Positions 1-52,547 of a DNA stretch of 52,547 bases are shown piece after piece (the first letter of the stretch is position 1; each line of letters opens with the position of its first letter). The translations under genes were made by a program, and so were the position numbers. This DNA is from Ancylonema sp. Lineage: Eukaryota. The stretch lies in NCBI GenBank assembly GCA_050230475.1, contig JBFLGF010000221.1:1-52547 (forward strand). Reading direction: 5' to 3'. A model generated the notes under the pieces. That model was not told the DNA's origin. It did not search any database and was given only the letters and a program-made list of their open reading frames with translations.

Positions 1-104
1 TAAAAATCACGTTTTGAGTGTAAAACCGAAAAAAAAAAAAAAAACTTGTTTCTCTTAGCGAAGAGTCTCTTATGACGAAGTGTCTTATATCGAGGTTTGA
101 GTGT
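1..104. mobile_element. Terminal fragment of a Tc1/pogo-like MITE (ends ...CTTATATCGAGGTTTGAGTG-TA)
   Basis: The reverse complement reads TA-CACTCAAACCTCGATATAAG, resembling the termini of other TA-flanked MITEs here. A near-copy of this end (ATATCGAGTTTGGAGTGTA) is at ~34592-34610. The other end lies outside the window. Confidence 0.4.
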
Positions 105-333
105 ACATGCTCGATATTAAGTTACGCAGAAACACACTTTTTCGAGAAAACACAATGACCTAGGGCTGTTGCAAAGCTTGAGCTCGAATCCGTGATCGAG
201 GATTAAAAAATGTAACATCCAAAAAAACATGGTCATTTTTTCGAAAAAGTCTTTGAGCGTTTACGAAAACGTCTGAGAGATTTCCAACCCGCACTGTATT
301 AGAAGTAAAAATACGCATTTGTATTGCACTATA

Positions 334-895
334 CACCAAAACCTGTCTTAACTAATAATGTCGGGACCGGAAAATATTATTTATCAAGGCAGGTCATTAC
401 CTAAGACAGGCTATTACCTAATGTCCTAAAATCAGTTTTTATTCGAATACGACGGGCAATAGGTTAACATCCAGGTTGGAATCGATCCAAACGTGTATTT
501 TCACAGAGTCATAATCATAATCATAATGATATAGACGAAGTTGTAAATATGAGCCAACCCTCCATATTTGTATCCCGCTTAACTCTAGAAATAGTCGTTT
601 TTGTTTTTTTAATTCATTTTTTATTTTTTATTTATAATCAAATTTTCTTTCGGTTCTTCTTTTTCTCCCCCATCCTCCACATTTTTAACACCTACTCCGT
701 ACAAATATTTTGTACGGATAAGTGCGGATTACGTACTTCATTAATTAGCACGTTGGCGGGACCGGAAAAAAATATTAGATATCACGTTTGAGAGGTTTTT
801 GAATAATTACAATCGCCCAAGGTCGGGACCGGAGATTTTTCTAAATTAAGACAGGTTATTAATTAAGACATAATGAATTAAGACACGTCTTATTG
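334..895. mobile_element. Non-autonomous Tc1/pogo-like MITE
   Basis: TA on both sides and imperfect TIRs (CACCAAAACCTGTCTTAA ... TTAAGACACGTCTTATTG). Subterminal GTCGGGACCGG and AATAATTACAATCGCCCAAGGTCGGGACCGG motifs are shared with the MITE at 18431-19030. Confidence 0.6.
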
Positions 896-1702
896 TAGTT
901 AGTTGTGGATTAGTTTCAATCAGAGTTGTCTACCGGACTGTCGCTCATGCATTTGTGCGGAACAAAACGTGAGATTTCTACTTTTCGGAAGTTTTAGAAA
1001 TTGGTTTTGTAGTATGTTGGTTCTTTGTTTGTTATTTTTTTGTTGTGCCTTTTCTTCTTCCTTCTTCTTTTTCTTATGCGAACACATGACTCGTACCGTG
1101 TAGTATCAATTCGCTCGGGTGGTATGGAAAACGATGTGATATTTTGGTGTTGTTGGAGCCATTCCATGGTACTGTAACGTACGGAGTGTGACCCATGATG
1201 CCTTGAGCCAATTTTCCACCTAGCCTCTGAGCAAGTAGCCAAGATTGGACGCTGCAAAGCATCATTTTTCGTCCAACCTTTTTTTTCAGTTCCCGTTCCT
1301 GTTATTTCCCGTTCTCCTCTCGTCCCCCTCGAAATGCAAATCGAAAGTGTGGTTGCGTGGATAACCAACGCCTTGTACGATCGGAGTCAGTACATTGCAA
1401 TGTGAGGATCGCATCAACCGCCTTCAATGAGTGACTCAAGCCTTTTTCAAGCACAAAGCAGCATCCACACACCATCAACAACTTGTGGCAATTGAACAAA
1501 CAAGAGGCTCATCCACTTCCCATTGAACATACAAACTCACAATCGTCTTCATTATAACATAATGCACATTCCTTACCATGATATTCAAATACGGAATCTA
1601 ATATACATATATAAGCCTCCAAACCCCCCCCTCCGCCCCTACCCAATCCAAATTACGCAGCTCGCGTGACTAAATTTCGGCTCACACGCTTGTTAGAACA
1701 CC

Positions 1703-4700
1703 CTAGGCGTTTCTGAAAACTACTCCTTTCAACTCATACACGTCCATCTTCTTCATCACAACAGGAACACTTCCGTTGTTAAATAAGCGAACACCTGCCG
1801 ACTTTCCGTGTGCCAGTGTGGGATACACCCGGGCGGTCATCACAGTCCGCCCTCCCTGAGCAAACACCTCCACGATAGAGTTGTCCACCTGGAGTCAACG
1901 AGGGGTCAACGATGGAGTCAAACAAAAGTCAACGAGGGGTCAACGGGGGTGTCAAACAAAAAGTAAAGAAGGAGTCAACGGAGGAGTCAAACGAGCGGTC
2001 AACGACCAATCCATGTTCAACACCACTCCCCCCACTACAGTACTATCCGACTTATGTCCACATGTAATCTTCTTCTGGTATGAAGACCCTCGATATAGGG
2101 AACGCTGTACATGGGGGCCGATGAAGAGGTAGCATAGGAAGACGAGCTATTTGACATCCACCATAGCATTACAAAACACGCTCAAATCTACACCACATAC
2201 ATCCACATACATCCACAGACCCCCTCCCAAATCCACCGAAACAAAAAAGTTGCGAAAACGACAACGGACGCCCAACTTGCATTTACACTCTTTTAAACCA
2301 CTCCCCACCCCCAACCCCACCCCCAACCCCACCCCCTACCCCCCCCCCCACTCACAATCACTCTCAACTTCACCTCCCTCTCGCCCGGCATCACCCTCAC
2401 CCTCTCCCCATAAACATTCCTATCCCCATCCACCGCCAAAGATGCCCTGGTCTGATCTGTACAAACCCTGGTCTCCCACTCCCCCCCCCCCTCCCCCCCC
2501 CCGGGGATCATCTCCACGTAGACACCTGTCGCCTCCTCCCCCCCCTCCGCAGCCATGACCAGGATCCCAACCGGCCCAACCGCATTCCGCTGCGCGGAGC
2601 CCCTGGGGGAGCAGCGGGAGGGGGTGACGTGGCCGGATTGGATCAGGCGGTTGGCTGCTGCCACGTCAGCAGGGGAGAGGGTGGGGATGGTGAAGGTGAC
2701 CTCGATGTCCAGCTGCGCGGTTGGGGGGGGGGTGGGGGTGGGGGGGGTGGAATTGAATCTGAGGGTTCTGAGTGGGTATGGAGTCTGGGGATAAGATCAG
2801 GTGAATCATGTATTACGTTTTACTGGATCTTCAATGTATTCTTATTGGGATTTAGATTTTGCTCCTGCTTTTGCTTTATGTGACAAAGTTCAACATTGGG
2901 ATACTGCACTTTGCAGCGAACGATAAGAGGAGAGAAATGATGTATTATTTAACATTATTCAAGAAAGGATGTAACATCATTCAAGAAATGATGTAACATC
3001 ATTCAAGAAATGATGTAACATCATTCAAGAAAGGATGTAACATCATTCAAGAAAGGATGTAACATCAATCAAGAAATGATGTAACATCATTCAAGAAAGG
3101 ATGTAACATCATTCAAGAAAGGATGTAACATCAATCAAGAAATGATGTAACATCATTCAAGAAAGGATGTAACATCATTCAAGAAAGGATGTAACATCAT
3201 TCAAGAAAGGATGTAACATCACTCCTGTGATGCATTAAAACTCTATGTCGTGATCTCAGGACCATCTCAGGGACAGGCTCATCCTAATACAACTGATATT
3301 ATGACTGGAAATTCCCATCCGCATTCGTGGGTAAGCCAATAAGAAGCCGCCACCTGTCCCCCCGCCCCCCCACCTGCGTTCCCCGCACGTGCTTCACCTC
3401 CTCCTCACTCCCTGCCCCCAACTCGATCTCCCCCACCCCAAAATGCGCCCCCCGGAGCCCCTCCACCTCCTCAATCGGCTCCTGAACCAGAAACTTCCCG
3501 GAAAGAGGGTCCAGATACACCTTCCTAGGCAGAGCCTGCACGGACGCCCACCCCTTTTTTATGTCCTCGACCGTCGTATCGGATTCGTTCACCCACCCCA
3601 TCACCACCCTCCTCTCTTTCAGTGGGTCGTAGAACGATTTGGACGCGTAATATCGCCCGTAGTCGTACTGGGGCCCGGTCTGCACGTCCAATGACGCGTC
3701 GACAGGTGTCCAGGTGTGGTGGACGGGATCGTAGTTCCCGACGCTGTAGTGGTCGCTGCGGGAATCGTCGAAGGAGGCTTTGAGGACAAATTTTAGGTCC
3801 GTTCCGAACGCGGACGTGTCGAGGCCGTTCGCGGACGCTTGGTTGACGGGATAGAAATCAGGACACTGAACCTCAAAAACGAACGACGTATACGTCACGT
3901 GAGGCACTCCCAGGATCTTTCCGACTGAAGATCAAGTTGGCGCGAAATAAATCGAAAACTGCGATTCATCCTGCCAATTGAAAACTGATTGTCTGTGATG
4001 CGGTGGAAAGTAGTGTGGTATTATGGAAACTGATATCATGTCCCACATAATGGAGCAGTTTCCGTTTCACTCGGGTCGGCTGAAATCTGATAAGTAAATG
4101 GCTAAACAGTCCGTCGTTTTCTCCTGTCCCAAACAGTTTATCGATGTAGATTGATTTTACTGTTAGTAGTTAGAGACACTGGAGTAATCCCTACCTATCG
4201 CCCTGCCTGCTGGAAACTGTTCAACTACTGTCAACCCGCTCTATACGCACCCCTCAACCTAGGCGCACCGTCCATAAAGGGTCCGGCATCCCACACATTT
4301 CACCACCCTCTGAGAAGGCACACCCTTCATATATGTAACCAACCCTCTTTCAGAACAACAAGGTACCTGTACAACAGGTTGACCATATCGCAGTTTCTCC
4401 TGAGCCTGCTCTTTCTCTCTCACTCTCTATTTTGGGACCAGAAAAAACCCCAACCCCGCCTTCCACCTCCCCACCCCCCCCTCACCTCCCACAATCCCTC
4501 TCTGTTGGGCGCTGTTCTCATCGGTTCCTCCCTCAACCCCCACTCCAAAAAATCGTCCGTTTCATACACCAACGCCACGTCCACCCCCGCCCTCCTCGCC
4601 CCAACCAGCGCCCGCCATCTCCCATCCGCCCCCAACCACGCGGTCGTAGGGTCCCTGAAATTGGACGCGTTCACGCCCGTTGGGGCAGTTACAACGGGAT

Positions 4701-6571
4701 TACGGGGGTCCTTTATCCAGGTCGTTAAAAAGGGGTCGCTGGGGTCTGCTGGGGTGGCCTGGCACTGGGTCTGGACCCCCGTTTTAGAGGCCCCGGTGTA
4801 GAGAAGGACGGGGGTACCGTTGGGGAGGATGGTCGCGGAACCCGACCAGCACCCCCCGGCGTCGTAGGGGTGGTCGGGGAAGAGGGCGGGGGGGAGGTAT
4901 TGCCACTGGGGGGGGGAGGGGGGGTAGGGGGGGGAAGGGGAGCAGAAGATGGGAGGACTACTTTTGATGAGTTCTGTTGACTCTTGATAGACCCTATTGG
5001 ATTTTGTTGACTTTTGTCGACTTTGACGAGTGACAGCTGTCGACCTCCTGGTGGATGTCGAGTCTATAACGACGGATTGCAGGTGTGAATATGTGTGTAG
5101 GGATCGCAGGATCATCTGTCTGCCTTTCTAGAAGACCTGAACTAGAGGGGCAGTCTCGAGTGGCAACACCCATGTCTGCCTCTAAGACCTGCCACGTGTC
5201 TGCCTCTAAGACCTACCACGTGTCTGCCTCTAGGACCTGCCACGTGTCAAGCCATGATGAGTTGGGGACCAGGCTTGGGTCTGCTTGCATGCGGGGACCA
5301 TAGTCGATTTTTCCGACCAGTCCATACGCACATAACGTTGACATTTATGTACGAATCTGGTGAAAAGCGCTTTGGAGGCTATGGAAAGAGGTACAGTCCT
5401 GGCAAAAGAAAAGAGACGCAGCTTATATGCACCCAAAAGCTACCTGGCACTTCTGAGATGTTGATTGGTTGTAGTTGATTTGATGGTTAGTTGGTGTGTT
5501 GGTCGGTTGGTCGCCTTTTACGTGGATCAAGTCGTTGGACACCACGTGTCCCCACTGGATGTTGCTCCAAATGGCGCCGTCCGGATTGTACTGGTAAAAC
5601 AAATGGTAGTAGCCCTTGTAGTACAGAGGGCCTGGGGGGAGGTGCAGACAAGGAGAACGGAATCAGTACTGTCGTGGGTGCCAAAGTCCGAATTCCAAAG
5701 TATTTATGCTGAATGTGTTGCGAGGCTGCTGGTGGAGGAAGCAGAAGAAGAGATTTCGAGGAAGCTTTCTGTCTACTTTCGAAGACAGGCTACGGAACTG
5801 GAGCATTCATGTACAGTCTTCTCTCCGTATGACGAGGTTGTCATTGTATCGAGGGTCGTTTCACCGAGGGAAGAGTGTGGGATTCCACAGGCAGTAGTTT
5901 CACATTAGCAAGTCCCGAAATTACATGATCACAAAAGGCCACTGGAAAGTACGAATCACGTACCGTTTGGATCTGGAAAAGCAGACAGATTCGAGAGGTA
6001 GTGGCCATGCAACACAGGAGGCGAGAGGAGGGGTCAGGGTGCATCAACTAGCCCCACATAAAAAACAACGAGACTTGAACTTGCATACTTATGGCAGCTG
6101 TTTTACCTTGAAGCCTCCGCTTGTTAACAAAATGCCAGCCACGAGACACGAACTAGAAATTACGCGATTTCGCTGTCTCCCTTCCTTCTACATAACCTCT
6201 CCCCACCTTCGCCACATCTAACCCTGATAAAAGAATCGAGGTTCATAAATCGGTTTTAAATGAAGCAGGACCTTCATATATCGGGCAGACATAAGGCCAC
6301 AGATTGACATCACAGCTCAACGTTCTGGTATTCCCGACTCACCATTCATCCAGTTCTTCGCCGGTTGGAAGTGACAGGACGTCCTGTGGATTTTTGCGAG
6401 GTCCTCCCCTTTCAAAAGCCTGTGGCTTCTGGAGATGCTGTCTACGACGGTGGTCGATGGAACTCTAGCGCCAGAACCTTGGTCTATCGCGGAAAGCAAC
6501 GCCACAAAAATAATAAAGATTGGCATGGAGAGGAAGGGATGCATGAAACCTCTTATTAATCTTGCGTCCAT
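1703..6571 (-). CDS. Acid beta-fructofuranosidase / invertase (GH32), 7 exons
   Basis: Exons, all GT-AG and phase-consistent: 6571-6343, 5972-5964, 5631-5522, 4905-4486, 3865-3374, 2712-2356, 1888-1703. The spliced protein has an N-terminal hydrophobic segment, [29 protein letters not shown] (split by an intron), YYASKSFYD and C-terminal [13 protein letters not shown]. Confidence 0.95.
2951..3220. repeat. 22-bp minisatellite (CATCATTCAAGAAAGGATGTAA), ~12 copies, in invertase intron 5
   Basis: Directly visible tandem array. Confidence 0.92.
5173..5248. repeat. 24-bp tandem repeat, ~3 copies, each containing CCACGTGTC (G-box/ABRE-like), in invertase intron 3
   Basis: GTCTGCCTCTAAGACCTGCCACGT is repeated. 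Confidence 0.75.
5964..5972 (-). other. 9-nt micro-exon ATCCAAACG encoding the DPN of the invertase NDPNG catalytic motif
   Basis: The minus strand reads ttttccag|ATCCAAACG|gtacg. It joins exon 1 (AAT G|) to exon 3 (|GC CCT CTG) in frame. Confidence 0.93.
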
Positions 6572-8631
6572 GACTGTCACGTCCGGGGCACAACTGATTC
6601 TGGTCTTAACTTCTGATGACGCAATGTCTCAACAGCGTCGTCGGATGACTGAAAAATGAGTACCAGCGATGCGCCGTTTCCAGATGCTTCCTTAACTTGC
6701 GGATGACAAATAAAGAAACAGATGAAGATTTTGCAAGCCTTTATTCGAGAAAAGCAATGGAGAGAAATAACATTATTAAGTTTTCCGCCAATGGCGCTGA
6801 CAGGAGAAATCCCCGCCTCATGGACGACTAGTTTGACGTTCAAGTGAACCTCACGCTACATGACATGCCTGCCGTGCTACAATCAGGTGCCGGAGACAGA
6901 GACGCAGAATCCTGAAGGAACGTCTCGCAGAATCCTGTCTTCTGCAGCCCACTTCATCCTCAACAGAGAAAACATCTGCGGGGACGACGCCTTTCCCCAT
7001 TCTCAGATGGTGCGGACGGACAACGCCCTGTTGACTATTTCAAACGAGATCTTGCGGACGGTATCGCAGTTGACTGTGTTCGAGAAACCACCGCATTTGA
7101 CGCTAGATTTGCACCAGTAAGGATTGACGCTTCTGCAACGCCTTCTGTTGGTGAAATCCTCACAATCGCCAGGATTGTACGGTGCAACCGAGTGGAACGT
7201 GCGGGCGACGTGCAAAGAGCAGGAGCAGGAGCGGCGAAGCAGAGGTCTTGGAGTGGACCAGGTGTCGACGCAGACTGGAAGATGGTGCTGTTGTCCCCTT
7301 CCCATGAAGGAGATGAGCCACGAATAAAATGATACATACTGATAAAATGAAGGGTGTCGAAATTGCAGGTGCCAAACACTGAACCGCAGATTGTATCTTG
7401 TCGAACCGGAGATTGTATCTTGATATGACAAATTGACATTCCGTCTAAATCTGCATCCAGTCTGTTTTTCCGTCCGTTCACTTTCACTTTCACTTTCACT
7501 TTGCGAGACTCCCAGAGTTGCTGAACGAAGCGAGTCTCTCTGTAATTGAAGCTGGAACCCAGTTTTTCGTCTTAGTTGTGGTCTACAGCACGTCTGAGTT
7601 TCTGTTCTTGCGTCGCCAGTATCTTGCATTCCTAAAAGTTTGCTAAATCTCCTTCCCTGCATGTCCTCCTGTACATGCATGGAATCGCAGAGCCCAGAAG
7701 TTTCTTTTCTAAGGTGAAGATCTCTCCTGCATCTTGGAACCAGCAAGTCATAGTTTTCACGATCCAACTATTAATTCGTCCTAAAAACGCTACCTGGTGT
7801 TTTCCGGGCAGCAAGAACTGCCTCTTACACTATGGCCAGCCATTTCGTTCGTCGCCCCTTTCCTTTCTAAGTCATGGCGGCAAACGAGGTCTCTTTCGCG
7901 AGGTGGTGTAGGGGTCTAGATCGGTTTCCGTCGGGGTTCGTATCCGGAGAACATCGCTATCCTCGTGAAGCTCTGGATTTTACGTAAGTCAGTTGAGACT
8001 GAGGGGCATAGTCTCTCGGAATTATAATTAACCCGTGTAAGGATCTTGTCTCTCCAACAATATGTGTGCCATGTATGACTTCGGCACATTGACTCTTCGA
8101 TACCTCTTCACGGCTAGCTACTTATAGAATGACTCTACCAGCCACCCTGCATTTTAGATACATTGATCAGCTAGGAGGCACCAAAAAGATCAATTCAAGT
8201 TATTCAACCCTTCTAGTTCGATTGATCAAGGTGATTGACAAGAGTAGACTCCAAGACGTTTGATACTCGTCAAAACTCGTCAAATACATTTTATAAACAC
8301 ATGAAGGGTGCTTGTAAACCATCGTTTTCCCTGAGAAGACCGATCGATTGTCCATCTAGCTTGCCTATCTCTTGAATCTAGTGGTTGTTGGTCTCGTTTT
8401 ATTGTGATGACCATCACATATCGTTTTATCAAGGGAGGTAGATGAGTGGGACAGTGATAGAATCATGCAATTAGCATAATCAAACATCTTGTTTTGTTAA
8501 AGATGTTTTGATACTATCTACATAGACTCCACACTTGTTCTTGACGCTCTCGTGATTCTTCTTTACATCTCAAGGTTTGCGAGACTGCAAAATTGGAAGT
8601 TAGAGGCAACCCCGACCCCGCCTTAAACTCC

Positions 8632-11029
8632 ATGACCTCCTTCTTCGATAACGAGGATTTGTTGTCGCAAACATTCGAATACATCCCAAGAGACGACAGG
8701 TGCAATCTCACTCTTGTGGCCAGAAAATGGAAAGGGGTGTCGGAGGCCTTCCCCACGTGGAGAATCGGGTGCCTCGATCTTAAGTTCGAATATGGGCCAT
8801 ATTTTGAGAAAGTCGATGTCGAGACCAGTGGGGAGAGTGAGGAGGTTAAGTGGGCAACATCCGTTTCGACCTTGACGATGATACTCGCCCAGCGGAAATA
8901 CATCGTGGAATGGTCATTTCACGTGACCCGTGTTCCCCCAACCCCAACCTCCTAGGGTGACCTTGCCACGTGTATGACGCACGTACGGCGCCTGTAGCTC
9001 GCATTCTATGAGTCCAACGCTACATACACGTTGCGACTGGCGGATCTCCCAAGCCTGGTTGTCTTGAAAGTCAACACGACGGTCAAACTAACCTCCGTGT
9101 CCCTCCACTTGCCATCATTACAAACGCTTGGGCCGCCCATTGGAGCTCTGCTAAGTCAAATCAACTCGAGAGCTCACAGAGCGTGACGTTGTGTGCCCCG
9201 GTTTGGTGTCGCTTTCTTTACGAACCTAGAATGAGGAGCTATCACCATCCTTGTTGGCATCACTAAACCGTCTCCATCTCTACAATTCGAGTGTGAGTGA
9301 GGATGTGGTGGGGATTGGATGTTGGGACGAATTGGTTAGACCTCGTTTCAAACGTGGAAGCGTATCCTAGACTTATGTTACTCGCTCGTAATAATCGTAA
9401 CCCACGAGCATGCCCTTGAACTCGTAAAGCCGTTATTTTGGGGTTTGATCCGTCTTCCCAGTCCTTTCTCTTATTAGCTTCTGTAGTCAACCCTTACACA
9501 AACTAGTGCAAAAATCGTTGCCTCGATTCAGACTCCTCCATGTCATCATGATCTGATCTCTTCTTCGACTCATGGCTTCGTTTTCCTATTGTGTCCGTAC
9601 AAACCAACTCACTCTTGCGCAACAACGGGAGTGAATTGGTGCTAGACGCATGCCCATAACTCACCGACCTCTTTCTCTTCAACACTCTAGTCTTTCCGGG
9701 ATTGACGAAATGGGCCCTTGACTTGCCGTCCTTGACAACACTTGAACTTTGCGCATTCGCAATCGAGGAGTGGAGCCTTGTGTGCCCGAAATTGGTACAT
9801 GCCAAACTGCACGGTTTGCAAACGCCCAGTGTGATCGTGCAATCGACCCGCTCCACAAGGGTGAGCCCATGGGGTTATTAATGGGGTAATTGTCGCTACA
9901 AGGTTGGGAGTGTTAGGTCCATCTTTAAGGATGTGGTTGGTGGCGCTTGCTCATTGGATGTTGATTGTAGTGCGATTGCTATGAATTAGATGTGTGAAGA
10001 AGACAGGTTTTCTTCTGTTATCCCCTTGTGTGCGCCTTCGCGCTTTTAGTCAGCAGTCATGAAACCGCAAACCCCATAGAGAAACTATGTGATGCACATC
10101 ATTCCATTTCTCTCATCTTTTGCCTTCTTTGACTTGGTCCTTCCAAAATGCACAGATCTCTTCCCCATTTTTTTGAGGACCACGAGACCTTCGTTCTTCA
10201 AAGTTGTCCACTTTTGAAGTCCTTGTTTAATTAACAGTCCGTTAAGCGCGGAATCAGTCACAGTTGATCAGTCCCAAGCCTCCGTATTGTAACCATCACT
10301 GACGGTCAAAGCGTAAAAAGCTGCAAACTAGTCGCTCCCAACTTATTGGAGCTCACCATCAACAACCACCCTCTCCTTGATCGCTCATTCATGACCCTTC
10401 TCTCTCTCCAATCCCTCAAAGTCAGAGATTGCCCTCTCTTGGATGTTTCTTCGATGAAACAACCAACTCTATTGACTCTCGAGTTGGGCAACTGCAAGGT
10501 GATTGTTTCCTGCTATGTGTTCTTCCTTCCAATGTAATGGTGAGAGATGGAAGGTGATCATATATTCCACACGAAACATATTTTTTTTCCATCTTGTACG
10601 AAACTTATTTTTTTTTTTTTTTTTCGGTCACAATTGTAAGTCTTGGAATGTCATGATTATCTTCCATCACACTACTTGTTTCGAAAACAGGTGGCGATGA
10701 CTTTCATTGTTTTCCATGAAAGACCACTGTCTAATCTTCATTTGTACTCTTGGGAGTAGGTAGAGGAGTGGAACTTGCCTGACTTGACGAGGATTCGCGT
10801 GGGGGAAGAAATATTAAAAGAAGTAGGAGAGTTTGAGACGATTGCCGAGGCCGGAAATGAGCAAAGCCTCAAAGTCGGAAGGTTTAGGTTCAAGAGGTCT
10901 AGACCCGACAACCTTGGAGCATATTTTCCTTCACTGGAAGTGGAGTTGACCTCGGTTGCTGACCGATACTTCGAGAGTGTGACTCTATTCATCAACTTAG
11001 GGACCTCCTTGCGTCCAAAGTGGTCATAG
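8632..11029 (+). pseudogene. Decayed F-box/leucine-rich-repeat gene
   Basis: F-box-like start (EDLLSQTFEYIPRDDRCNLTLVARKWK), then LRR-like units (LADLPSLVVLKV, LHLPSLQTL, LDLPSLTTLEL, LVCPKL, LSLQSLKVRDCPLL). In-frame stops (8953, 8995, ~9657) and frameshifts interrupt it. Confidence 0.65.
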
Positions 11030-34999: not shown

Positions 35000-37900
35000 T
35001 ATGCAGTGATAACTAAGCCCTTCTAAGACTCGCGCCATCGTCGGACGACGAATTAGTTAAGAAACCCGCTGCTAGTGGTTTTGACCTCTTGCTAGTGGTT
35101 TTGACCTCTTGTTCCACGTGGCTGCTCATGTTGCGAGGGGTCGCATTCCGGCGTCTATTTGTCATCTATTAGGGGCATCTCGGCTGGTGGCGTTGGATAA
35201 GGGCGGCGGGGCGGTACGTCCCCTTGCTGTGGGGGAGGGGTTTTATCGTTTGATCACTCGTGCGATATGCCTTCAGATCCGGGAGGCGCTTCACGACCAT
35301 TTCGAATGGCAGTACGGCTTTGCTTTTAATCTGGGGGGTGCGACTTCTTTTGGAAGCGCGTCCATCTTGGGGTGTCATACAGGTGGACGTGAAGAACGCA
35401 TTCAACACCATCCACCGCCAGGCGGTCTTTGAGGAGCTTCGTGATTCGGGGGGGGGGTTGAGTAGTTTGTTCCCGTTTGTGCGAGCTTTTTATGGGGGGT
35501 CTTCCCCCCAATTCTTCCGTGCTATAGTGATCTGGCGGGGGGGGGGAAGAGGTAGTGGAGTTGGCGTCTTCGACCGGGACTCGTCAGGGGGATCCCCTTG
35601 GGGGGGTAGTGTTCGCCCTCGGCCACCAGCAGGCTCTTCGATCCACCGCAACGGCATTTCCGGACTGCGCCTTTCCTTCAATTGGAGATGACACCCATAT
35701 CGTGGGGTCACCTCCCCGATGTGGTGGAGGCTTTTAAAGTTTTTTGTGGAAGGAGCTTTCAAAACTCGGTCTTTCCGTGCAGCCGTCCCAAGTGTGTGGC
35801 ATGGTCACCATCTGGTCGGGAGGTGTTTCCGATTCTTCCGGAGGGGTGCTCTTATGCTACAGATGGCATTCGTGTGTTGGGGGCGCCTTTTGGGACGAAC
35901 CAGTTTGTGCGAGGCTTCCTGGCAGGTGCGTTGGAGGAAGATACGCGGGGTCTTCAACAATTATGCCTCGTTGAGGATCCGCAGGTGGCCCTCCGCCTAC
36001 TTACGCAAGTGTTTACTGCTCGACCATCATATCTGCTGCGTACTTGCCACCCTACCTCTTCCTTCCTCAACCAGCTCGGGGAGTACGATGCGACGCTGTG
36101 GAGGGTTGTAGAGGCAGATCTATTGGGCGGGGTGGTTGGTTGCACTTCGGACCATATTGGTTTGTCGCGTGACCAAGCTTGTTTGCCGATCGCCCGGGGG
36201 GGCGTGGGTTTGGTTCGTACTACTCGGGTTCTTGCCTCAGCTGCTTTTATTGGCTCTTATGCTCTCGCCGCGCCTGCACTCGCATCAACTCAGCCTTCAG
36301 CGGTTTATCATTCGGCCCGTTTTTCAGCACTGTGGACGGACATCGAGGGCGAGGCTTCGGTCCGCTAGTGGACCCGGTGCGGGTCATTGGCTACAGGCGT
36401 CCCCCATCATTCCCTCCCTTCGTATCCCCCGTCCCCTAGTCCTTACTGCCATGCGCCTGCGCCTCGGGTTTCCCCGCCCATGCCTTGCTACCTATGATAC
36501 GTGCGCGTGCGGCAACTCTATGGACGCCCTGGGTACGCATCTTATGCGCTGCAGTCGAGGGGGGGAGCGCACTTCATCTCATGACTCGGTGCGAGATTCC
36601 GTATATCACATCCTCGAGTCGGGTCAGCATGATCAACGAGAACGTACGGGGTTTCTTCCGTCCGCTCCGGGCGGTCGTGGGGGGCGGGATATTGTTATTT
36701 CGGATGTGGTGGAGGGGCATATTTTGGTGGATGTGGTCATTGCTCACCCCACGCGGCGTGACTTGGTGGATCTCGCGGCTTGTCGAGGGTTGGTGGCCGC
36801 ATAAGATGCAGAACGGCGCAAAGAAACTCATTATCGTGATCGCGCGGCAGGGACCAAGTTTATCCCGTTTGCGTTAGAGGCGTACGGTGCGCTTTCCGAT
36901 GCAAGCAATCGGTTATTGGTGGATTGTGCTCACCGTGCGGCGCAACTCAATGGGCGATCGGGACGGAATGTTAGTTTGTTAGTTACTTGGTTTCGGCAGA
37001 GAGTTTGTGTTGCTTTACAACGTTCTCTAGCACATGCAATCCATGCTAGGACGTTGCGATTGCAAGAGGGTATGGCTCTATTACCTCCCCCCCCTCCGCG
37101 GGTGTTATTGTCGTCAGTAGAGTGAAGGATTGTTGCTCGGGTGTTTTAGGGTTGGGGTTGTTTTCCTTCTTTCTGTTCCTTTAGGTTGGTACGATAACGT
37201 TGGTGTTATACTCAGATGGGGTTCCCATCGTGCTTGAATAAAATGCGTCTTTCTTCTAAGCTCCAAAAGTTAAAAGCGCCTGAAATTTCTTCTAACTCCT
37301 TTCTAACTTTAGAACCCGCTTAGAAAGTTCTAGTGACGTGGCAAGTTTTCCGACGTGGCACACAAGGACCCGGAACGAATCAGAAATTACAATGACGCCC
37401 AGTCACCCAACCTTGGACCTCGGGACCTCGGGACCTCGTTGGCCCGCTAGCCAGAAATCCCACTAGAAAACCCGCTGGCTACGAAACCCTCTAGCACTCA
37501 GACCCCACCCGCTCAGTCGCTGGCACGATTTCCCCACATCGAGTGCATGCTCAGCCATTGATTTTGAAATTTTCTCAGATCGGAAGCTAACGTATGCCAC
37601 CAATTTATGGGGGGGGGGGAAACGAATCCGACCTTTCATTCATTATCCTTTACCAATCGCGCGAATTTTGGGATCATGTTTCTATTATCAGTACTGTATA
37701 ATATTTCACGTTCATAATTTTACCTCGTAAACTTTTTCCGAAAGCACATGAAAATAGGAACAGTTTTCACATCTCCGCTTATCAATCGAAAAAGATTTGA
37801 GGCAGAACGGATGATTCGCGGCAAGCTGCTCGCGGTGGAAGGATCGATGGCTCAGAGAGGGAGCTGAAAATAGGCCGACGAGAGGCTACCGGACGGGGTA

Positions 37901-43923: not shown

Positions 43924-46140
43924 TGGTGCCCTCCTGCTAGATGTCCAAGTTAGACACATTGTGTTCACTTTCCGGAAACTCTTCCCGGAACACTTTATTC
44001 ACTCGCACGTGTATTTTGCTCATATCATGACTTTTTGCAGTGTAACGTGATTATTTGCTGTTAGAATACCAATTAGCCACAGTGTGCGCCAGTTTCGCTG
44101 CGCATATCGGCAACCATTGCAATTCCTTGCTTTGGATAGTAGTTTCCGAAAAGTTCCTATCTTCGGATCGCAACATCCAGCATATATTAGTAACATGAAT
44201 GTCCTGGTCCCGGATTCATACCGGTAGATTGGCCAGAGGTTCTCCTCAAAGCACAAATGGGGGATTTCATTCACCAAATTCGGAGCAATCAGAAATTGAT
44301 TTCGCTGACTATCAACTAGATTTCAGCGCGCTCTACGAGGGCCTTAGACGTGCAAATCAGATTCCGCGCGTCTTCCGTGAACTCGCAGAAGCCAACCTTG
44401 CCGCATAATTTCCCTTTCCTTCGTGTGAACAATTTGTACCCGCTGCTGCCATCCCTGTTGGCGTTGTTTATCAATTAGACGACAGTGACAACGAGGCTGG
44501 CATGGCGGACGCCCGTCCACCCAAGTACAACGGGGAGCTCGGCAAGCAACAAGATGCCTTCTTCGACCATTCGCGTACACATTTCCGTCGCATGTGTTTG
44601 CGAAAGGACCGGGTCCTACATTCTTTTGAAGGTTACGGACAATTGGAGTTTCTGGATATTGATCTGCGCGACTGCCTTGGCCCGGACGCGTTAGAAGTTC
44701 TGAATACCTTCCTCCACGACGCTGTTCTCATCCCTCCAGTAGCCGGCCCGGAACGAGTCGCAGCACAAGCATTGGCAGCCGCGCGTACGGCCTGGCGAGA
44801 TTTATGTGCAGATTGGTTGGAAGGAGCCCGTGGGGCTAAGTCCAATGTACTTGTCGCACCAGAGCCAGCGGACAGAGAGGACTTCTTTGCTGCGCTTCGC
44901 CGACGCTTCATGGCTAATTGCGGGCACGCGTATCGCGACTTGATGAACTACAGCCTACTGGCAAGAGACACGGTGCACAGCCAGTTTGTGCGACTGGAGG
45001 CCCTTGCCAAACCTACGGAAGACGGAGGCATGACGCAACCAGCAGACAACGCGATTCGCTACTACCACTTCCTCCCTGAACCAGCCAAGTCAGTGATGAG
45101 ACCAGACTACGAGAAAGAACAGCAACGACGTTGGGAAACAGAGCCGCGCCTCCCTCTTATGACGCGACAAGAGATCCGGGATATGGCCCAAAAGGCGGAG
45201 AACAAAGCCAATACCGAAACCTCGGATTGGATCCCACCTTGCCTGGAAGGTATCTGCTGCCTACACCAAGAAAGGCGTCTCCGAACCTTGGCTATTCCCC
45301 TCTCCATGGCTTCCAAACTCTTGTCCCAGTCCTCCCCGCGCCTCAGACACTTGCCCTCGACACCCGTATCTGCCACATCTGTGGGCAACCAGGGCATGTG
45401 AAGTCCAACTGTCCACATCACGCGGGAGGACAACAACCCGTACAACCGGTGGTGATTCATCCAGCGATGCCCAAGACAGCCACGCCGGCAGCACCTGCAG
45501 CACCCGGAGCAGCCTGCGGCCGATGGAACATCACCAACCAGAACCGCACCCCCAACGCACAGTGTGCACATTGTCTAAAGATGCACCACACGGAGGAGCA
45601 GTGCATAGCAAAGAAGAAGGGTGTACCTCGAGCGAGCCCCGTTCCTTTTCCTGGCTACACCTTTGGACAACATCTGCAGCAGGTTGAGGAACAGGGACCG
45701 GAAGGGTCCACTTCTCAGGAGCCAGAGCAGCAGCCAAGACCACAGCAGCAGAAGCAGCATTCTGCCCAACAACCACCCTCGGCGCCCCATTATCCAGCCT
45801 ACAACGCTGGTGCATAATACTACGAGTATCAAGGTGAAGAAGGGTACCAGGAGATGCAAAATGCGCAGCTGCCGCAGATTTCTTTCCCAGCCCATGCAGG
45901 AGGCATGAGGATCGATGCCACAATAGGAGAGTTGCGTGGTGTGGCGCCGCGAGCTGAAAACAGGGCCCGGGTATTGTGTATCCAGTCCGGGTCTTCAGAC
46001 CTTGGATCGGGTCCACGTGGAAGTCACCTGCAGCTGTTTCAGCGCCAGCCTCCCCTCTCTACCTTCTATCCTCAGCCGGAGATGCAGAACGAACGACTGC
46101 AGCAGCTTTCCCTTCTCACCAGACAAGTAGTGCTGAAGAC
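43924..46140 (+). mobile_element. Decayed LTR-type retroelement A: candidate PBS and gag
   Basis: ...GAGACA-GT-TGGTGCCCTCC (LTR end plus PBS-like) at ~43916-43935. Gag from ATG 44502 (PPKYNG), frameshift at ~45230, two CX2CX4HX4C knuckles (CHICGQPGHVKSNC, CAHCLKMHHTEEQC), TAA at 45815. The frame continues to ~46140, just before the gap. Confidence 0.75.
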
Positions 46141-46153
46141 TGTGTCATACTTA

Positions 46154-46154
46154 N
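46154..46154. other. Assembly gap / ambiguous base (N)
   Basis: Single N between the two retroelement segments; base composition changes across it. Confidence 0.9.
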
Positions 46155-49039
46155 ATGGCGTAATGCCACGCTACCAAAAATTTCAAAACCAGATTTTGAG
46201 CCGAATTTTCAGCACGTGGTTTAGTTTTTATAACCCAAAGTGGTAGTTTTCGGTCTGACTTAAGCCAGTACGTTCATGTCTGGTTGGTCTCGTGATCAGA
46301 ATCAACGCTTCGTTCGGAGAGAAGCAAGCGTAGGGGGAAGTGGTAGTGAAGACTCTAGTAGTGAGTCAGCGCGCGATAGATCGCGATCGCGGTCACAATC
46401 AGCAGGAATACAGGAGTATGTTAATTCTCAGGGTGTGGCTGGACTGCCAGATCTTCAGCTTGTTTTGTATCAAGCCCCGAATCCTGCGCCACCAGCACCT
46501 TTACCAGCCGGTTATTTTTCTTTACAACTGGTCGGGCTCGAGGAGGATTCAGAGATGGAGAGTACGATGGTTGTGCAAAAATATTCGGGAGGGGGGGGTG
46601 TGGTGCAGCGGCACTTTATTCAGACAATGAAAGCGGTGCAGCGGCACTTTATTCAGATAAATGGGACGCGGTCATGAGGAACCCACATAAATTCTTGAGT
46701 GGGGAGAATGGACAGCTAGAATTCCTTAAGGAAGCTATTGCATACCTAGAGGGGGAGGCTCGGCCAATACATGATGATTACCGACGACCACTGGATCACA
46801 CTGATCCAGATAACCCGAGTTGAGCTATCGCAATCGTAGTGGAGGTTGTGCGGGATATATATCGAGCATACTATGGGCAGAAGGCTAGCTGGCAGCTAAT
46901 GCGGCTGACCTCTGGACTTTTGGGACCACCCGCTGCACCCATTCAAGCGGAACGTGCTGATCTGGAAGGATTCTTCTAGAAGGTGTGGACGAGGTTTGCT
47001 ACGGCGGGGTCTCAGTGGCTTGTGGAATTTCAAAACTACAAGCCAACACCAGGGGCAACCGCCAACTCCATCTATGACGACCTCTCGAGGATCACCATCA
47101 ATATGGTGCCTCAGATGGTTAGTGCGCGGTAGGGAGCGTGTTTCTATGAGGACTGTCTCCCCGGAGGGCTCAAGCGGGTGATCAGCCCGAAGTTGAGGGC
47201 TGAGGAGGAGCGACGCGATGGAGCAAGTCTCCCGAAGATGAGCATGGCAGATGTCAGGGACATTGCCGCATCTCAGGAGAGGGCGCAGATGTCGCGGGAT
47301 GCGGAGCTGCGGATGTTTGGCCTATTGCCAAGTCAGAAGGAGGGGGAAAAAGAGGGAGGGGGAAGAGAGGAGGGGAAAAGGAAGTCGAGAGAAGGAGGCG
47401 GAGGGGGGGGATCTGGGAATGGAGGAGGAGGAGGGGTTGGGAGTGGAAAGGGTGGGAATAGAGGAGGAGGGATGGGGGGGGAAACCCTCGTCAAGTATTT
47501 CACTTGTGACGGGCTGGGGCACAGAGCTGCAAACTGTCCCACAAGGAAGCGAGAGGAGACGGCGGGGAGGCTGAGGGAGGCACTCAAGACCGCAGCAGCA
47601 GGACGCGCGAAGGGTGTGAAAGCACCCTTCGCCGCCAGATTTGGGACGGCGAGGGGAGTGGCTATGTCGATGCCGCGGGTTCACATGAAAGAGTGAGCAA
47701 CCTGCAGTTTCTGTGACAAACAGAACCACACTGAGGCGCAGTGTTGGGCAAAGCACTCCGAGCTTCGTCCCAAGAACTACAACCTAGGGGGGGCACTTGA
47801 GGCCAAGCGACCACGACAGGGGTTGGCAATGGCGGTGACCCACGCCAGATGCTGGCAATGGGGGTGGGTGAGGAGGGTGACGTAAACGGTGTGGAACTGG
47901 GATTCTATCTGGGGGAGATGTGGGTTGCCATGGACGTGCCAGTGGTGCACGTGAGGCCACCGTTCCAGATGATGGCACCACGCGCACGAGGAGGGCGGCC
48001 TGGAGGAGGGAATGCTGGACCAGTGCGCGCCTCCGACAGGCTGTGGAGCACGGAGAGGGGAGAGGGTAGCAGCCTAGCAAGCAGACTGGGACCCAAGAGT
48101 GCGGGAAGAGCTCAAGGAGGGACACGACAAAGGTCGCCGGGGGCGGGTGATTTGAGGCGGGTGATTCAGAACGTGGGGCAACGTTTGGAGCAGGAGGAGG
48201 CAGTCGTGAGGGGAGTGCAAGCAGCCGAGACTCTTGCGGCGGAAGCAACGGGTGCAGAGAAGAGGGGTCCAAGGAGACCTAGGAGGGTGATCTTCGCGCA
48301 GAACACTCAGCCACGCGATATCCTGTACCCGTCGGAGAGGGCAGATAGAGGGCCAGCAGTTCAGATCCGACCAGGGATGAGTGTCACGGGTGTGACAACC
48401 CCTCCGTCAGCAATGGTGTCAGGTATGCCAGCGGTGTTTGTCGGGGAGAACAGTACTGTGAGGGTCCCTATGTGATACCCTCCAGGAATGGACAGTGCAG
48501 CGGGAAGAGCATTGCAGGAGGCAACAGATGTGCTATTTGGGTCTTCTGATTGGCGGGCTGAGTACGGCAGATACGGCCGGGAGCCAGTTTCCATAGAGGT
48601 GGCGAAGGAGGGGATACAGGAGGTGGTGCATAATGCAAAGGAGAGGGAAAGGCTAGTGGAGTTAGAGGCAGCCAGCAAGTACCTTGACGGGAAACTTGCA
48701 TAATCGCTCCCAATCATGACGGGGAGGTTAGAGGTGGTACGGGAACTTAAAAAGATGGCTGACTCCGGAACGGACATAGACCAGGGAAAAATGATTCAGA
48801 TTATGGGGAGGGGTTTGGGACCACAAGGGGAGCTGCTGGCAAACATGCTGGCAGAAAATTTTTAAAGTCTTGAGCGAAACTTTCACAAGCTTCAGGAAGA
48901 AATCTCACAAAAAAACATGGATCAATACGGGGGGTTGAGGTCATTAGTGGAGGGAGATCCGCTACACGCTAGCTGGGTAGGAGGGGGAGGAAAGAAGGGG
49001 CCTTGGAGTGTGGCAACACTTCTAGTCAAAAACAGGGAG

Positions 49040-49350
49040 TTGGTGGTGAACGGTATCACTCCGATGGGCATGGTGATCCTGGATTCGGGGGCCACTAAAC
49101 CCATGATTAGCTCTCGGATGGCAAGGCGTATGGGGATAACGGACGAGCAACTGACCGTGAGGGTGTCATTTGTCACGGCAGCAGGGAAGATGTCGACACG
49201 CCAACGCATGACGAGGGAAAAATTGAGTTTCACCCTGGCCGCTGGAACATAGTATGAAACCACATACGATGAGGTAGTTTTTGTGGTGGACACTGAGTGT
49301 TACGACGTGTTGCTGGGGATGGAGGTGATTGGCCCTATTGGGGGGGTGTA
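49040..49350 (+). pseudogene. Retroviral-type aspartic protease domain
   Basis: MVILDSGATKPMIS...FVTAAG...FVVDTECYDVLLGM, with a TAG at 49250. Confidence 0.85.
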
Positions 49351-50368
49351 TGACTCGTGGGTAGAGGTTTTTACATGGAGAGTAGACTACCATCGATCAG
49401 CAGCTGAGGGGGGGGGAAAGACCAGAGGGGTTTTGCCAGCTCAGGGGAGACTGACAGAGAAGGAGTGCAGGGCAGCGCGCTCAACACTGCCTATGTAGGC
49501 TATGGCGTTGGGTAGGATTCACAGGGAGTGGTCGGGAGAGGTGCAGATGCATTCTCACCTCTACAGCTTAGATGCTGAGGAGGGTCAGTTTGAGGATGCG
49601 GAAAGTGATAAGTCCTACGAGTGGGAGGAAGTGGAGGAGGGGGATATGGGGGGGGGTGAGAGTGAAGGGGTGGTGGAGTTAGAGTGGGAAGGGGAGGTGC
49701 AAAATCTGGCACTGCTCACTCTGCTGGTGCAGATGGAGGAGCAGGCAGCCCGGGGGTGGGATATGGATGGGGAGATAGCTCGAGGGGTGGCGCTCGATGA
49801 GGCCAACCTCTTGCTGGAGGAGGAGATTGGGTGGAAAAAGTCCGGGGTGGGCTGAGGAGGGGTATGGGGGGGGTAAAGGGAAGCCTGGGAGAAATTTCAG
49901 GGCATGGTGGTCACAGAATTGGGAGATAGCCCAAGGGAAGGGGGGCCAACCGCCCAACTGCGGCTGGAGGAGGGCCAACCGCGGCTGGGGCCCCAACCGC
50001 AGCAGATGCTAGGAGAGGGGGGGGAGGGGGAGATTCAGAGCTGGGGGAAGCACACGAGTGTGGTGCAACCTGACCCTAGAGTAATGGTGGGGGGGGTGGA
50101 TGTGAAAAGCGCGCGGCAAAGTCAGCCCCAACCACGGTTGGGGGAGCTGACTGGTGAGCCTAGTGAGGTAGATCTGCGCGCGGTAGCGGTGGAGCAGGTG
50201 GATGCAACACGGCGAGCGGCGGCAGCTTTGAGGTTGCTGAAGGCGAGGGAGAGCTTGCTGGGACAGGCCAAAACACAGAGAACCTGGAAGTGGGTGGGGG
50301 CATCGGTGAGAGGAGCAGCACCGATTAACACCAGGGTTGTGAGCCTCAGGGAAGAGGCAGCGGAAGAG

Positions 50369-51435
50369 GGAGTTCACATTGTCGAGCTTTTCAGTGGCAT
50401 CGGGCTGGGGGCCACTAGATCAGCCTTGGCGGCAGGATTGAGGGTGCGGCTTGTGTCGTGCGCTGAGAGGAACCCCATCTCCAACCGGATCAACGAGGGA
50501 GTGATCTAGAAGATGATCCTTGAGTACCCAGGCCAGATCAACAGGGGGGCATTCATCGGCTGGGAGAAGAGGTTGCCATAAGATGTGGGGCTGATCAGAG
50601 AAATGGCGCTGGGGAACCTAATTGCGCAGAACGGGGAGATGGATATAGTGGGGGTTGGCTAGGAGTGCCAGAGCATCAACCGGGGGGGCAGGCAGGAAGG
50701 GTACGCAGACAGGTGATTCCAGTATTTCTACGATTTGGTGCGCATCCTCGGATGGCTGCAGCACCATCGAGAGAGATCGCCAGTCTACTTTCTGGAAAAC
50801 ACCTACCCGGGGGAGTTGGCAAAGATGCCTGAGTCGGTGCAAAAGACTGCACGTCTGATAGAGTCCTTTATTGGGCTGGGGGTGGTTCTGGACGCGGGGG
50901 GGTTGGGGGCAGTCAGCCATCGGCTGCGCTACTTTTGAACGAACGCTATGGACCGGGATGAGTTGCAAGAAGCAGTTCCGCAGGATCTGCAGCCAAGCCC
51001 AGCGTTGAGGGAGATCTTGAGGGAGAATCACATCCCCAAGGAACTTGCTTTCACCGACTTCCCACCTCAGGTCGGGAGGAATTTCCGGGGAGAGGAGAGG
51101 ATCCTGATGCCGACAATTGTTAGCTTTCAGGGGAGCTATGCCTTCAGGACCCAGCGGGATGGCAACCCAGGGGAAGAACATGTGTACAACACCAACACCC
51201 ACAGGTGGGAGGAGCCAGATGTGGGTGAGAAGGAGCAGCTGCTGGGGTTTCCGGAAGGGACCACTCGCTAAGTGTGGAGACCTCGCTCTGGAGCCCTAGT
51301 GACTGTAGCGAGGGTCCTCACAACTCGGGCGGAGGGGGTTTCCGCGAAGCAACGAGCGGAGAGGCTGGCGAAATGCATGGAGGGCAACACCATGAGATGG
51401 TTGGGGGCTGTGTGGGGAGCCAGCATGAGCAGCTA
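50369..51435 (+). pseudogene. C5 DNA cytosine methyltransferase domain within the retroelement pol region
   Basis: One frame gives motif I VELFSGIG, II CAE, III LP*DV, IV DIVGVG*ECQS, V D.RF..F, VI YFLENT, VIII LDAGGLGAVSHRLRYF*TN, IX EKEQLLGF..GTT, X QR..LAKCMEGN. Stops at 50507, 50579, 50660, 50714, 50936, 51269. Confidence 0.9.
51263..51327. mobile_element. Miniature TG...CA insertion with 5-bp TSD (ACTCG)
   Basis: ACTCG-ctaag-TGTGGAGACCTCGCT..AGCGAGGGTCCTCACA-ACTCG. Removing 60 bp restores GTTRAEGVS and removes the 51269 stop. Confidence 0.7.
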
Positions 51436-52547
51436 GGGAGTCGCTGCCACCCAACCCCTAAAAGATCAGGGGTTGGGGGGGCCAACCGCAGCCCACGGGG
51501 GGCTGCGGGATGGTGCGGTTGGGGCGCGGTTGTGGGCAACTGGCCAAGGCACACATAATTGGAGCTGGGGAGCTCAGGAACAAAATGGTGAAAACCAGAA
51601 GAGTGATTTCGAAAAGGACAGTCCTCCAGCATACGGAATGTATGCTGGTCTCTTAGGAGGAGGGGAGATGGCGGAGGCACAAAAAGTGGTGCAGACGTTG
51701 CTAGACTTCTATGCTGAAGCTGAAAATTTGGGAGCAGCTAGAGGGCATCAATTCAAACCAGGAAATTAATTGGGTTCAGCCAGATTCGAAGGGACCAGCT
51801 CAGGGCAGCATTTATCATTGTCAGCTGGACTACCCGACAAAAATATAGCTGAGGGAGATGCTGATGGGGCGATTTTGCACCTCCAGCCATAAAAATCTGT
51901 AATTTTGGGATCTAGTAGGGAAGAGGCTAAGGAACCAGGATCACTCAACATATCAGAATTTGGACAAAGTAGCAGCCTAGGAGATCTAGGTAGCTCTGAC
52001 AGCCAAAAAGGCAAAAATTCTGTCCATAATTCAAAAAAAGAGTTGTTAAACCCTAGGGTTTTGGAAACAGAAGCAGGTTTTCGAACTGGTAGTGAGGATA
52101 GGGTAGGGTTTTCCAATAAGCCATCCCATGTACTCATAAATTCAAAATTAAAGATTTCCAGCCCTTTTTACTACTCTGAGTGTAAAATGGATTTGGCCAG
52201 ATCTGAAACCCAAGATTTGGATTTGCAGACAGGGGTTTTGGGGGGGGATGTCATGGATTTTATAAAACATAGAGGGGGGAAACAGCTATCCATAGCACCA
52301 TTGCACTCTAGATTTGGAGCAAAACCGAGGCTTGCAGAGCTGCAGATGGCTGCTCTGGGGGAGAGGCAGCGGTTGGGGCAGGTTGGGGGTGGGGGCAGTT
52401 GGGGCCCCACAGGAAACTTCAGAAAATCATTAAAAAAAAAAATTAAAAAAAAATATATGGGGATTTTGAGGGGAATGGTAAAAAGTACTCAGGGGTAGGA
52501 GTGAGCACTAAGGGTGGGACCTTAAACCCAAAACCTGATTTTTCTGA

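Follow-up and report, generated by a model that had tools for sequence, protein, structure and literature searches.

A decayed Ty3/Gypsy-type retrotransposon with a DNMT3-like methyltransferase domain in Ancylonema sp. and a candidate readthrough stop at the end of its frame

The DNA analysed here, called the window throughout, is a stretch of 52,547 nucleotides of contig JBFLGF010000221.1 from Ancylonema sp., and its last 6.4 kb hold a retrotransposon in which Gag and an aspartic protease (PR) are followed by a C5 cytosine methyltransferase (DNMT) domain of the DNMT3 type. We are highly confident that this is a DNMT3-bearing element of the Gypsy lineage, and its class is that of KnitGypsy-Dnmt3, as the accessible text of PMC5890265 describes it, and thus already known. 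A first-pass annotation, made from the letters of the window, had likewise proposed a retrotransposon-borne C5 DNMT of a class that de Mendoza et al. (2018, PMC5890265) had described, and this proposal holds, the relatives linking either gag, PR and DNMT or PR, DNMT and reverse transcriptase (RT). What goes beyond that annotation is a shared stop after the DNMT, hairpins behind it and a Glu-Cys catalytic motif. Judged from aligned proteins, the DNMT frame of the window ends one residue past a column at which sister-clade relatives end, a feature not noted for retro-DNMT elements in the literature searched. Our reading of the whole, for and against which we see the chances as evenly balanced, is that of a dead Ty3/Gypsy-type copy whose PR-DNMT frame ends in a TAG followed by hairpins, a likely readthrough signal into RT, RNase H (RH) and integrase (INT) domains predicted beyond the window. 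The parts of the element up to the DNMT are as follows.

46155..52547, + strand: retrotransposon stretch, from one base past an assembly N at 46154 to the end of the window
46276..47852, + strand: degenerate Gag, starting at ATG 46276, with four in-frame stops, recognised by tblastn with the gag regions of relatives
47505..47744, + strand: two zinc knuckles, at 47505-47537 (first Cys lost) and at 47703-47744 (CX2CX4HX4C)
49040..49381, + strand: retroviral-type aspartic protease, by PF13650 (E 2.3e-08, above cut-off), PF13975 (E 1.4e-07) and tblastn
50288..51433, + strand: DNMT3-type C5 cytosine methyltransferase domain in the protease frame, 38-44% identical to relatives, by profile and model
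50381-50404, + strand: DNMT motif I
50663-50674, + strand: DNMT motif IV (Glu-Cys)
50786-50803, + strand: DNMT motif VI
50915-50935, + strand: DNMT motif VIII
51227-51250, + strand: DNMT motif IX
51371-51400, + strand: DNMT motif X
51263..51322, no strand assigned: 60-bp insertion between motifs IX and X, made of 55 bp and a 5-bp target-site duplication

The comparison draws on database proteins, here called relatives and numbered P0004, P0010 and so on, and on contigs matched to the 6.4-kb element from four sequencing runs, X1 to X4. The window element is one copy of a many-copy family. In X1, 12,852 contigs map to the element, about two thirds of them at 90-99% likeness, and reach all 30 bins along its 6.4 kb; the full length is likewise covered by X2 (from the same sample as X1) and by X3 (from another study). 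The shares of X3 and X4 are small and are not taken as a guide to habitat, and the summed contig depth is not taken as a copy number. Stop-free fragments are found at 83-89% identity (P0021, P0023, P0025, P0028 and P0029). Gag, protease and methyltransferase all lie on the + strand, protease and DNMT share one frame and there is no intron; a Gag with a CCHC knuckle and then an aspartic protease, as in Ty3/Gypsy long terminal repeat (LTR) retrotransposons, is present. Whether other copies join a DNMT to gag and protease had been named as decisive in the first-pass annotation, and five relatives do so (P0010, P0011, P0013, P0015 and P0017), with P0010 and P0013 reading Gag-knuckle-PR-DNMT in a single frame. 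DNMT and RT are fused in P0011 and P0012, RT, RNase H and integrase follow one another in that order in P0012 and P0014, and the complete order of P0012 is PR-DNMT-RT-RH-INT-PHD; the integrase of the relatives is a DDE integrase with an H2C2 finger and a PHD finger. A mis-assembly of unrelated parts was considered and rejected, and so were chance motifs, the window protein aligning by hhalign at E 5e-71 with a 45-sequence family profile that contains close relatives and excludes the window protein itself.

The two gag knuckles and the retropepsin DSGA already reported for this stretch are both there, the latter as ILDSGAT at 49076-49096. In the window the knuckle at 47505-47537 reaches only E 0.041 with PF00098, which is above cut-off in the relatives P0010 and P0013, and the gag regions of the relatives match the window by tblastn with best E values of 2e-14 (P0010), 2e-08 (P0011) and 1e-16 (P0013). 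The Gag frame shifts where 23 nt are duplicated (46602-46624 and again 46635-46657), and one X3 contig lacks the 23 nt at this site. The PR-DNMT frame opens at 47801, Gag being in another frame in the window copy with a shift near 47800-47850; loose ends of contigs at 47834 suggest that the window copy differs from other copies near that point. Position 46155, formerly given as the edge of the element, turned out to be merely the base after the N at 46154. No LTR pair was found in the window by self-blastn and a repeat finder, the 5' end being cut by that N and the 3' end by the window end, and no tRNA gene was found in the window. A related second Gag with two knuckles (PF00098 E 6.4e-05) lies upstream at 44409-46153, where the N at 46154 cuts it; it matches the main Gag at E 4e-06 and P0013 by tblastn at E 1e-12, has a frame shift near 45200-45350, and its base skew differs, which points to another subfamily. 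Similar short motifs stand upstream of both Gag frames, TGGTAGTTTTCGG at 46241-46253 and TAGTAGTTTCCG at about 44137-44148, and they are candidate primer-binding sites.

A protein search with the stops read as X returned relatives at the identities given above (five of similar length and six longer) and, among 1.84 billion representatives, 560 matches at E 0.001; the analysis used the best 150. Pfam gave no match to the window DNMT read in this way, PF00145 not being found at E 0.1, so that this check, proposed in the first-pass annotation, fails on the window copy itself; it succeeds on eight of the nine relatives scanned, seven of them above cut-off. Compared with PDB profiles, the family profile scores 88 bits with DNMT3A, 72 with DRM, 39 with M.HhaI and 29 with DNMT2, DNMT3B likewise ranking above DRM, and no DNMT1, MET1 or CMT entry is among the 56 matches. 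The structure model of P0004, an intact relative, has a pLDDT of 95.6, and all 33 Foldseek rows listed for it are DNMT3A, DNMT3B or DNMT3C. By score and by modelled fold the enzyme is DNMT3-like, nearer to DNMT3 than to DNMT1/CMT, DNMT2 or the bacterial enzymes.

Other origins of the domain were considered and rejected. For Dcm, DNMT3A/B come first by profile and by fold and bacterial entries reach only 18-39 bits versus 88 for DNMT3A, the two entries 3lx6 and 3me5 (18 bits) being those which we take to be Dcm; no relatives were found in the prokaryote genomes searched. The DNMT had previously been described as complete and Dcm-like, and of this description the normal motif order, the common strand, the lack of an intron and the distance of about 1.0 kb past the protease stand (motifs I, II, III, IV, VI, VIII, IX and X run unpermuted across 50381-51400), but not its completeness, since there are six stops and the 60-bp insertion, nor its likeness to Dcm. 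A retrocopy of DRM is excluded by the motif order, DRM aligning as two swapped pieces, and one of MET1, CMT or DNMT2 by the profile matches. We conclude that the domain did not arise as a retrocopy of any host gene, an origin that the first-pass annotation had named as refuting its proposal, because gag, PR and DNMT are linked in five relatives, the 6.4 kb are covered by family contigs, the motifs are unpermuted and no DNMT1, MET1 or CMT matched.

The window copy is dead and itself without function. In-frame stops number six in the DNMT (one of them within the 60-bp insertion), seven in the PR region and four in gag, and at least four of these 17 internal stops read differently in other copies among the best 40 of 1,282 differences. 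The site of the insertion corresponds to a 20-residue gap in 5/5 aligned relatives; seven X1 contigs skip the 60 nt with five letters shared, and contigs have loose ends at 51266 and 51322. The inserted 55 bp have inverted ends, their contig depth is roughly tenfold that of the element, and the sequence beyond them varies at one end and is a common extension at the other; they are likely the tip or end piece of a far more abundant repeat.

The features around the end of the PR-DNMT frame are these.

51434..51436, + strand: TAG ending the PR-DNMT frame, a candidate readthrough stop, one codon past the end column of the sister clade
51437..52498, + strand: in-frame continuation, of low complexity, in a region covered by family contigs
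51450..51508, + strand: two predicted RNA hairpins, a 10-bp stem (51450-51477) and a 9-bp stem (51486-51508), beginning 13 nt past the stop

In an IQ-TREE phylogeny of 29 hand-picked rows from the PR-DNMT side, the window and P0026 join (84/92) a sister clade of 11 rows (99/99) in which all eight rows that reach the C-terminus in frame stop at the same column; two of the remaining three are cut short and one is out of frame earlier. The window ends one residue later than this clade, as does the outgroup P0027, and P0022 and P0030 of the neighbouring group end two residues later. A loose end in X2 (two contigs, of a more distant subfamily) reads TAG GGA after the DNMT, matching the window, and both the TAG and the two core stems are free of differences among the best 40 of 88, although the neighbouring positions 51410 and 51441 do differ. 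From this we consider it probable that the stop is native to the family. The alternative is an ordinary single-frame element like KnitGypsy-Dnmt3, in which the TAG would be a private nonsense change and Pol would run unbroken through PR, DNMT, a long linker, RT, RH and INT. Such an element would agree with the relatives P0011, P0012, P0006, P0008 and P0113, which continue past the column, with the many private stops of the window copy, with the one-codon offset of its stop from the sister-clade column, with an X1 loose end that lacks the stop and with the review file of PMC5890265, according to which Gypsy DNMTs share one open reading frame (ORF) with RT. It is nevertheless distinctly unlikely in our view: the window clusters with the clade that stops and not with the neighbouring group, to which four of the five continuing proteins belong (P0012, P0006, P0113 and P0008), the TAG is missing from the differences just mentioned, and the hairpins begin exactly after it.

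The 100 nt after the stop fold with a z of -3.56, the lowest of 63 windows over the element, and none of 200 shuffles folded as well, the structure being predicted from one sequence. The continuation holds two stops in 328 codons against 14.1 expected, none of 2,000 shuffles was as open in any frame, and at 51767, where the window has the first of the two, the loose ends of 28 X1 contigs run on without one; the downstream peptide has no Pfam match. A conserved in-frame stop, an open frame behind it and a predicted 3' RNA structure are thus all present. In Tj1 of Schizosaccharomyces japonicus a stop before Pol is needed for transposition (PMC4600332), and in murine leukemia virus structure 3' of the stop drives readthrough (PMC2754532), in both cases according to the accessible text. 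Taken together, stop, 3' structure and in-frame continuation correspond to the layout that goes with readthrough in type C retroviruses and Tj1, from which we infer the mechanism. It should be noted, however, that the shared feature is an in-frame stop before Pol: in type C retroviruses and Tj1 it stands at the end of Gag, while in the window it stands after protease and DNMT, where readthrough is a proposal.

Several observations weigh against this reading. At the same place where X2 shows the TAG, a loose end in X1 (three contigs, agreement 0.71) lacks the stop, and at the stop rate of this copy, whose PR-DNMT frame has 13 others over about 1,210 codons, a chance stop near the column has odds of about 5%. 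The fold grid was phased on the stop, and another window, at 51934, reaches a z of -3.37. Searches including tblastn with nine RT-bearing relatives gave no RT, RNase H or integrase match in the window, which ends 1.1 kb past the DNMT; the more than 350 codons past the stop are without RT, whereas in P0012 some 95 residues separate the DNMT from the pre-RT region. Comparison of the downstream peptide with the P0006 linker showed no similarity (E 0.61), differences in the downstream region are spread evenly over codon positions (12/10/14), and no RT, RNase H or integrase is tied to the proteins of the relatives in the stop clade. Taking these points into account, we put the chance that an RT lies downstream and is reached by readthrough at even or slightly below.

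The missing RT and the sister clade, where the eight informative proteins all end at the DNMT and none is tied to RT, would also suit a non-autonomous element, for which Gag-PR-DNMT would be all that is encoded of the usual set, an autonomous partner would provide RT and integrase, and what follows the stop would be an accessory or relic ORF. We think this unlikely, given that the continuation after the stop keeps the phase and is almost free of stops, as a Pol continuation would be, that a structured signal directly follows the stop, and that P0010 occupies 3.6 kb of a contig of 8,494 bp, so that room is left for RT-RH-INT. TR-GAG elements are non-autonomous and have Gag and in some cases a protease, without RT. 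We know of no methyltransferase in TR-GAG elements; their lack of RT resembles the non-autonomous case, and the window element adds a DNMT and an in-frame continuation. The stop could also be native and Pol downstream, with Pol reached by splicing, internal initiation or a frameshift and the hairpins serving packaging or termination. The stem begins 13 nt past the stop, versus an 8-nt spacer and a pseudoknot in the murine leukemia virus signal (from a reference title in PMC2754532), Rfam gave no match at E 1, and the hairpins are known here as simple predicted stems, all of which fits this possibility; yet the downstream region is in the DNMT frame and nearly open from the first codon past the stop, and we hold it to be very unlikely.

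If readthrough operates, most ribosomes in active members would stop after the DNMT, Gag-PR-DNMT would be the bulk product and the enzyme, at about the level of Gag, would be packed into the particle, where the protease would likely free it. The DNMT would then likely methylate the newly made cDNA at CG sites, a role also proposed for SymbioDIRS-Dnmt3 of Symbiodinium, and the insert would thereby arrive with host-like methylation marks; occasional readthrough would supply RT and integrase. A conserved stop would define the natural C-terminus of the enzyme and would mean that far more DNMT than RT is made, a point in favour of a role within the particle. The shift between Gag and PR counts against this scheme, since, if native, it would mean that DNMT is not made at the level of Gag here.

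Residues of the enzyme were counted over 161 non-redundant rows, of which 138-144 cover a given site. The catalytic Cys (135/138), the motif VI Glu (143/144) and the motif VIII Arg pair (141/144 and 143/144) are near-invariant, and all are retained in the window copy. Of the 138 rows that cover the residue before the catalytic Cys, 87 have Glu and 36 have Pro; the window has Glu, so that the usual Pro-Cys dipeptide of motif IV is absent from its DNMT. The alignment indicates that Glu-Cys is a family variant, which lowers confidence in activity and not in kinship. The element has a CpG observed/expected ratio of 0.58, compared with 0.89 over the remaining window and 0.95 for a LINE-like stretch nearby, the value for GpC being 0.96. 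In L001, a metagenome locus described below, the CpG ratio is 0.53. Self-methylation would fit this depletion. The control stretch consists of degenerate frames like those of non-LTR retrotransposons at 35254-36877, with a Cys/His motif near the end and no Pfam match, presumably of the LINE-like kind. C-to-T-type differences fall in 17 CHH, 10 CHG and 2 CG contexts among 75 listed places, but this tally is uninformative, as it is counted from the best-supported rows, where sites mutated in many copies drop out.

SymbioDIRS-Dnmt3 methylates CG de novo in yeast (PMC5890265, accessible text), which makes it the model for the activity proposed here. Against activity stand the Glu that replaces the usual Pro, two of the 29 windows upstream of 43500 that are equally low in CpG (0.47 and 0.63), the possibility that the CpG loss could stem from host enzymes, and KnitGypsy-Dnmt3, which showed no activity in yeast, a result that its authors call inconclusive (PMC5890265). 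Weighing the sequence data, we lean slightly towards a DNMT active on the cDNA of its own element. The opposite case, in which the domain is inactive throughout the clade and serves the particle as a DNA- or RNA-binding component or is a passenger, would be favoured by the Glu-Cys majority and by that yeast result; we give it hardly any credence in view of the SAM-binding, catalytic Cys, motif VI and motif VIII residues, near-invariant over relatives at 26-45% identity, the confident DNMT3 fold modelled for P0004 and the CpG depletion of both the window element and L001.

KnitGypsy-Dnmt3 of the alga Klebsormidium nitens has in common with the window element a Gypsy-type build, no introns, an unpermuted Dnmt3-related domain in the polyprotein, a host of streptophyte type and many copies (PMC5890265, accessible text). 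They are likened by description and not by sequence, and they differ in that KnitGypsy-Dnmt3 encodes RT, RNase H and its DNMT in a single ORF (review file of PMC5890265), whereas the window frame stops after the DNMT. The repeats of KnitGypsy-Dnmt3 are laid out in a DIRS-like manner. SymbioDIRS-Dnmt3 likewise has a Dnmt3 domain in Pol, but it is a DIRS element with a tyrosine recombinase (PMC5890265), unlike the relatives of the window element with their integrase and fingers. EpiLTRs and DAM-LTRs are also LTR elements with captured DNA methyltransferases; their DNMT is sister to DNMT4 and lies beside a DAM domain and a chromodomain, and their authors set it apart from the streptophyte Gypsy-DNMT3 (10.64898/2026.05.21.726589, accessible text).

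A census of domains in 170 stored proteins gave the DNMT before RT in 7, PR-DNMT without RT in 11, the DNMT alone in 84 and the DNMT after RT/RNase H or directly before integrase in 63. L001 (positions 3-6350) is a full RT-RH-DNMT-INT-PHD example of this second order, by eye and by script. In a FastTree phylogeny of 96 domains, which left out near-duplicates and domains of fewer than 230 or more than 450 residues (P0012 included), the two domain orders separate at the midpoint root with the window within the PR-DNMT group, and the PR-linked P0141 falls on the other side. The domain comparison suggests either two separate captures of the DNMT or its relocation within Pol. Searches for the DNA of the relatives in viral contigs found none, apart from L002, a chance match without a tblastn match, and L003, an RT-integrase element without DNMT. 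A Chlorophyta-rich DNMT cluster was seen near P0004 in Atlas. P0034 (1,775 aa) and P0050 (2,159 aa) have a DNMT near the C-terminus and none of the scanned Gypsy domains, and are possibly another element class.

In the literature searched, with subscription journals mostly uncovered, neither titles nor abstract openings mention that a retrotransposon DNMT is followed by a stop or by readthrough, or that a DNMT3 lies between the RNase H and integrase domains; nor do the accessible parts of PMC5890265, PMC12344493, 10.1101/2021.11.30.470311 and 10.64898/2026.05.21.726589 describe the shared stop with hairpins, the Glu-Cys motif or the second domain order. PMC5890265 leaves open why a silencing enzyme should be retained by retrotransposons; as far as its accessible text goes, one charophyte enzyme was tested there and gave no activity. 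The 560 matches, the two domain orders and the Glu-Cys motif indicate a retro-DNMT3 module commoner and more varied than described. Tentatively, and with less than even expectation, we propose that in a plant-lineage clade the Gag/Pol switch moved behind a captured DNMT3, that RT-RH-INT would be made only by hairpin-driven readthrough, that the DNMT would be a particle component at structural level methylating cDNA before integration, and that, with the second Glu-Cys clade, retro-DNMT3 would be a large mobile module of green-lineage Gypsy elements. If true, retro-DNMT3 would extend far past the single charophyte family in print (PMC5890265, accessible text).

The remainder of the window contains host genes, which point to a streptophyte; in Atlas they gave clusters of mixed Chlorophyta and Streptophyta, with recognition below the threshold. 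They are listed here.

2300-5900, - strand: plant-type GH32 invertase
8545-8955, + strand: F-box protein
14655-15875, - strand: single-exon DUF1995 protein, with one relative, 68% identical
16390-20800, + strand: ferredoxin-dependent bilin reductase

The introns of the host genes have long G runs at their start and short tandem arrays inside.

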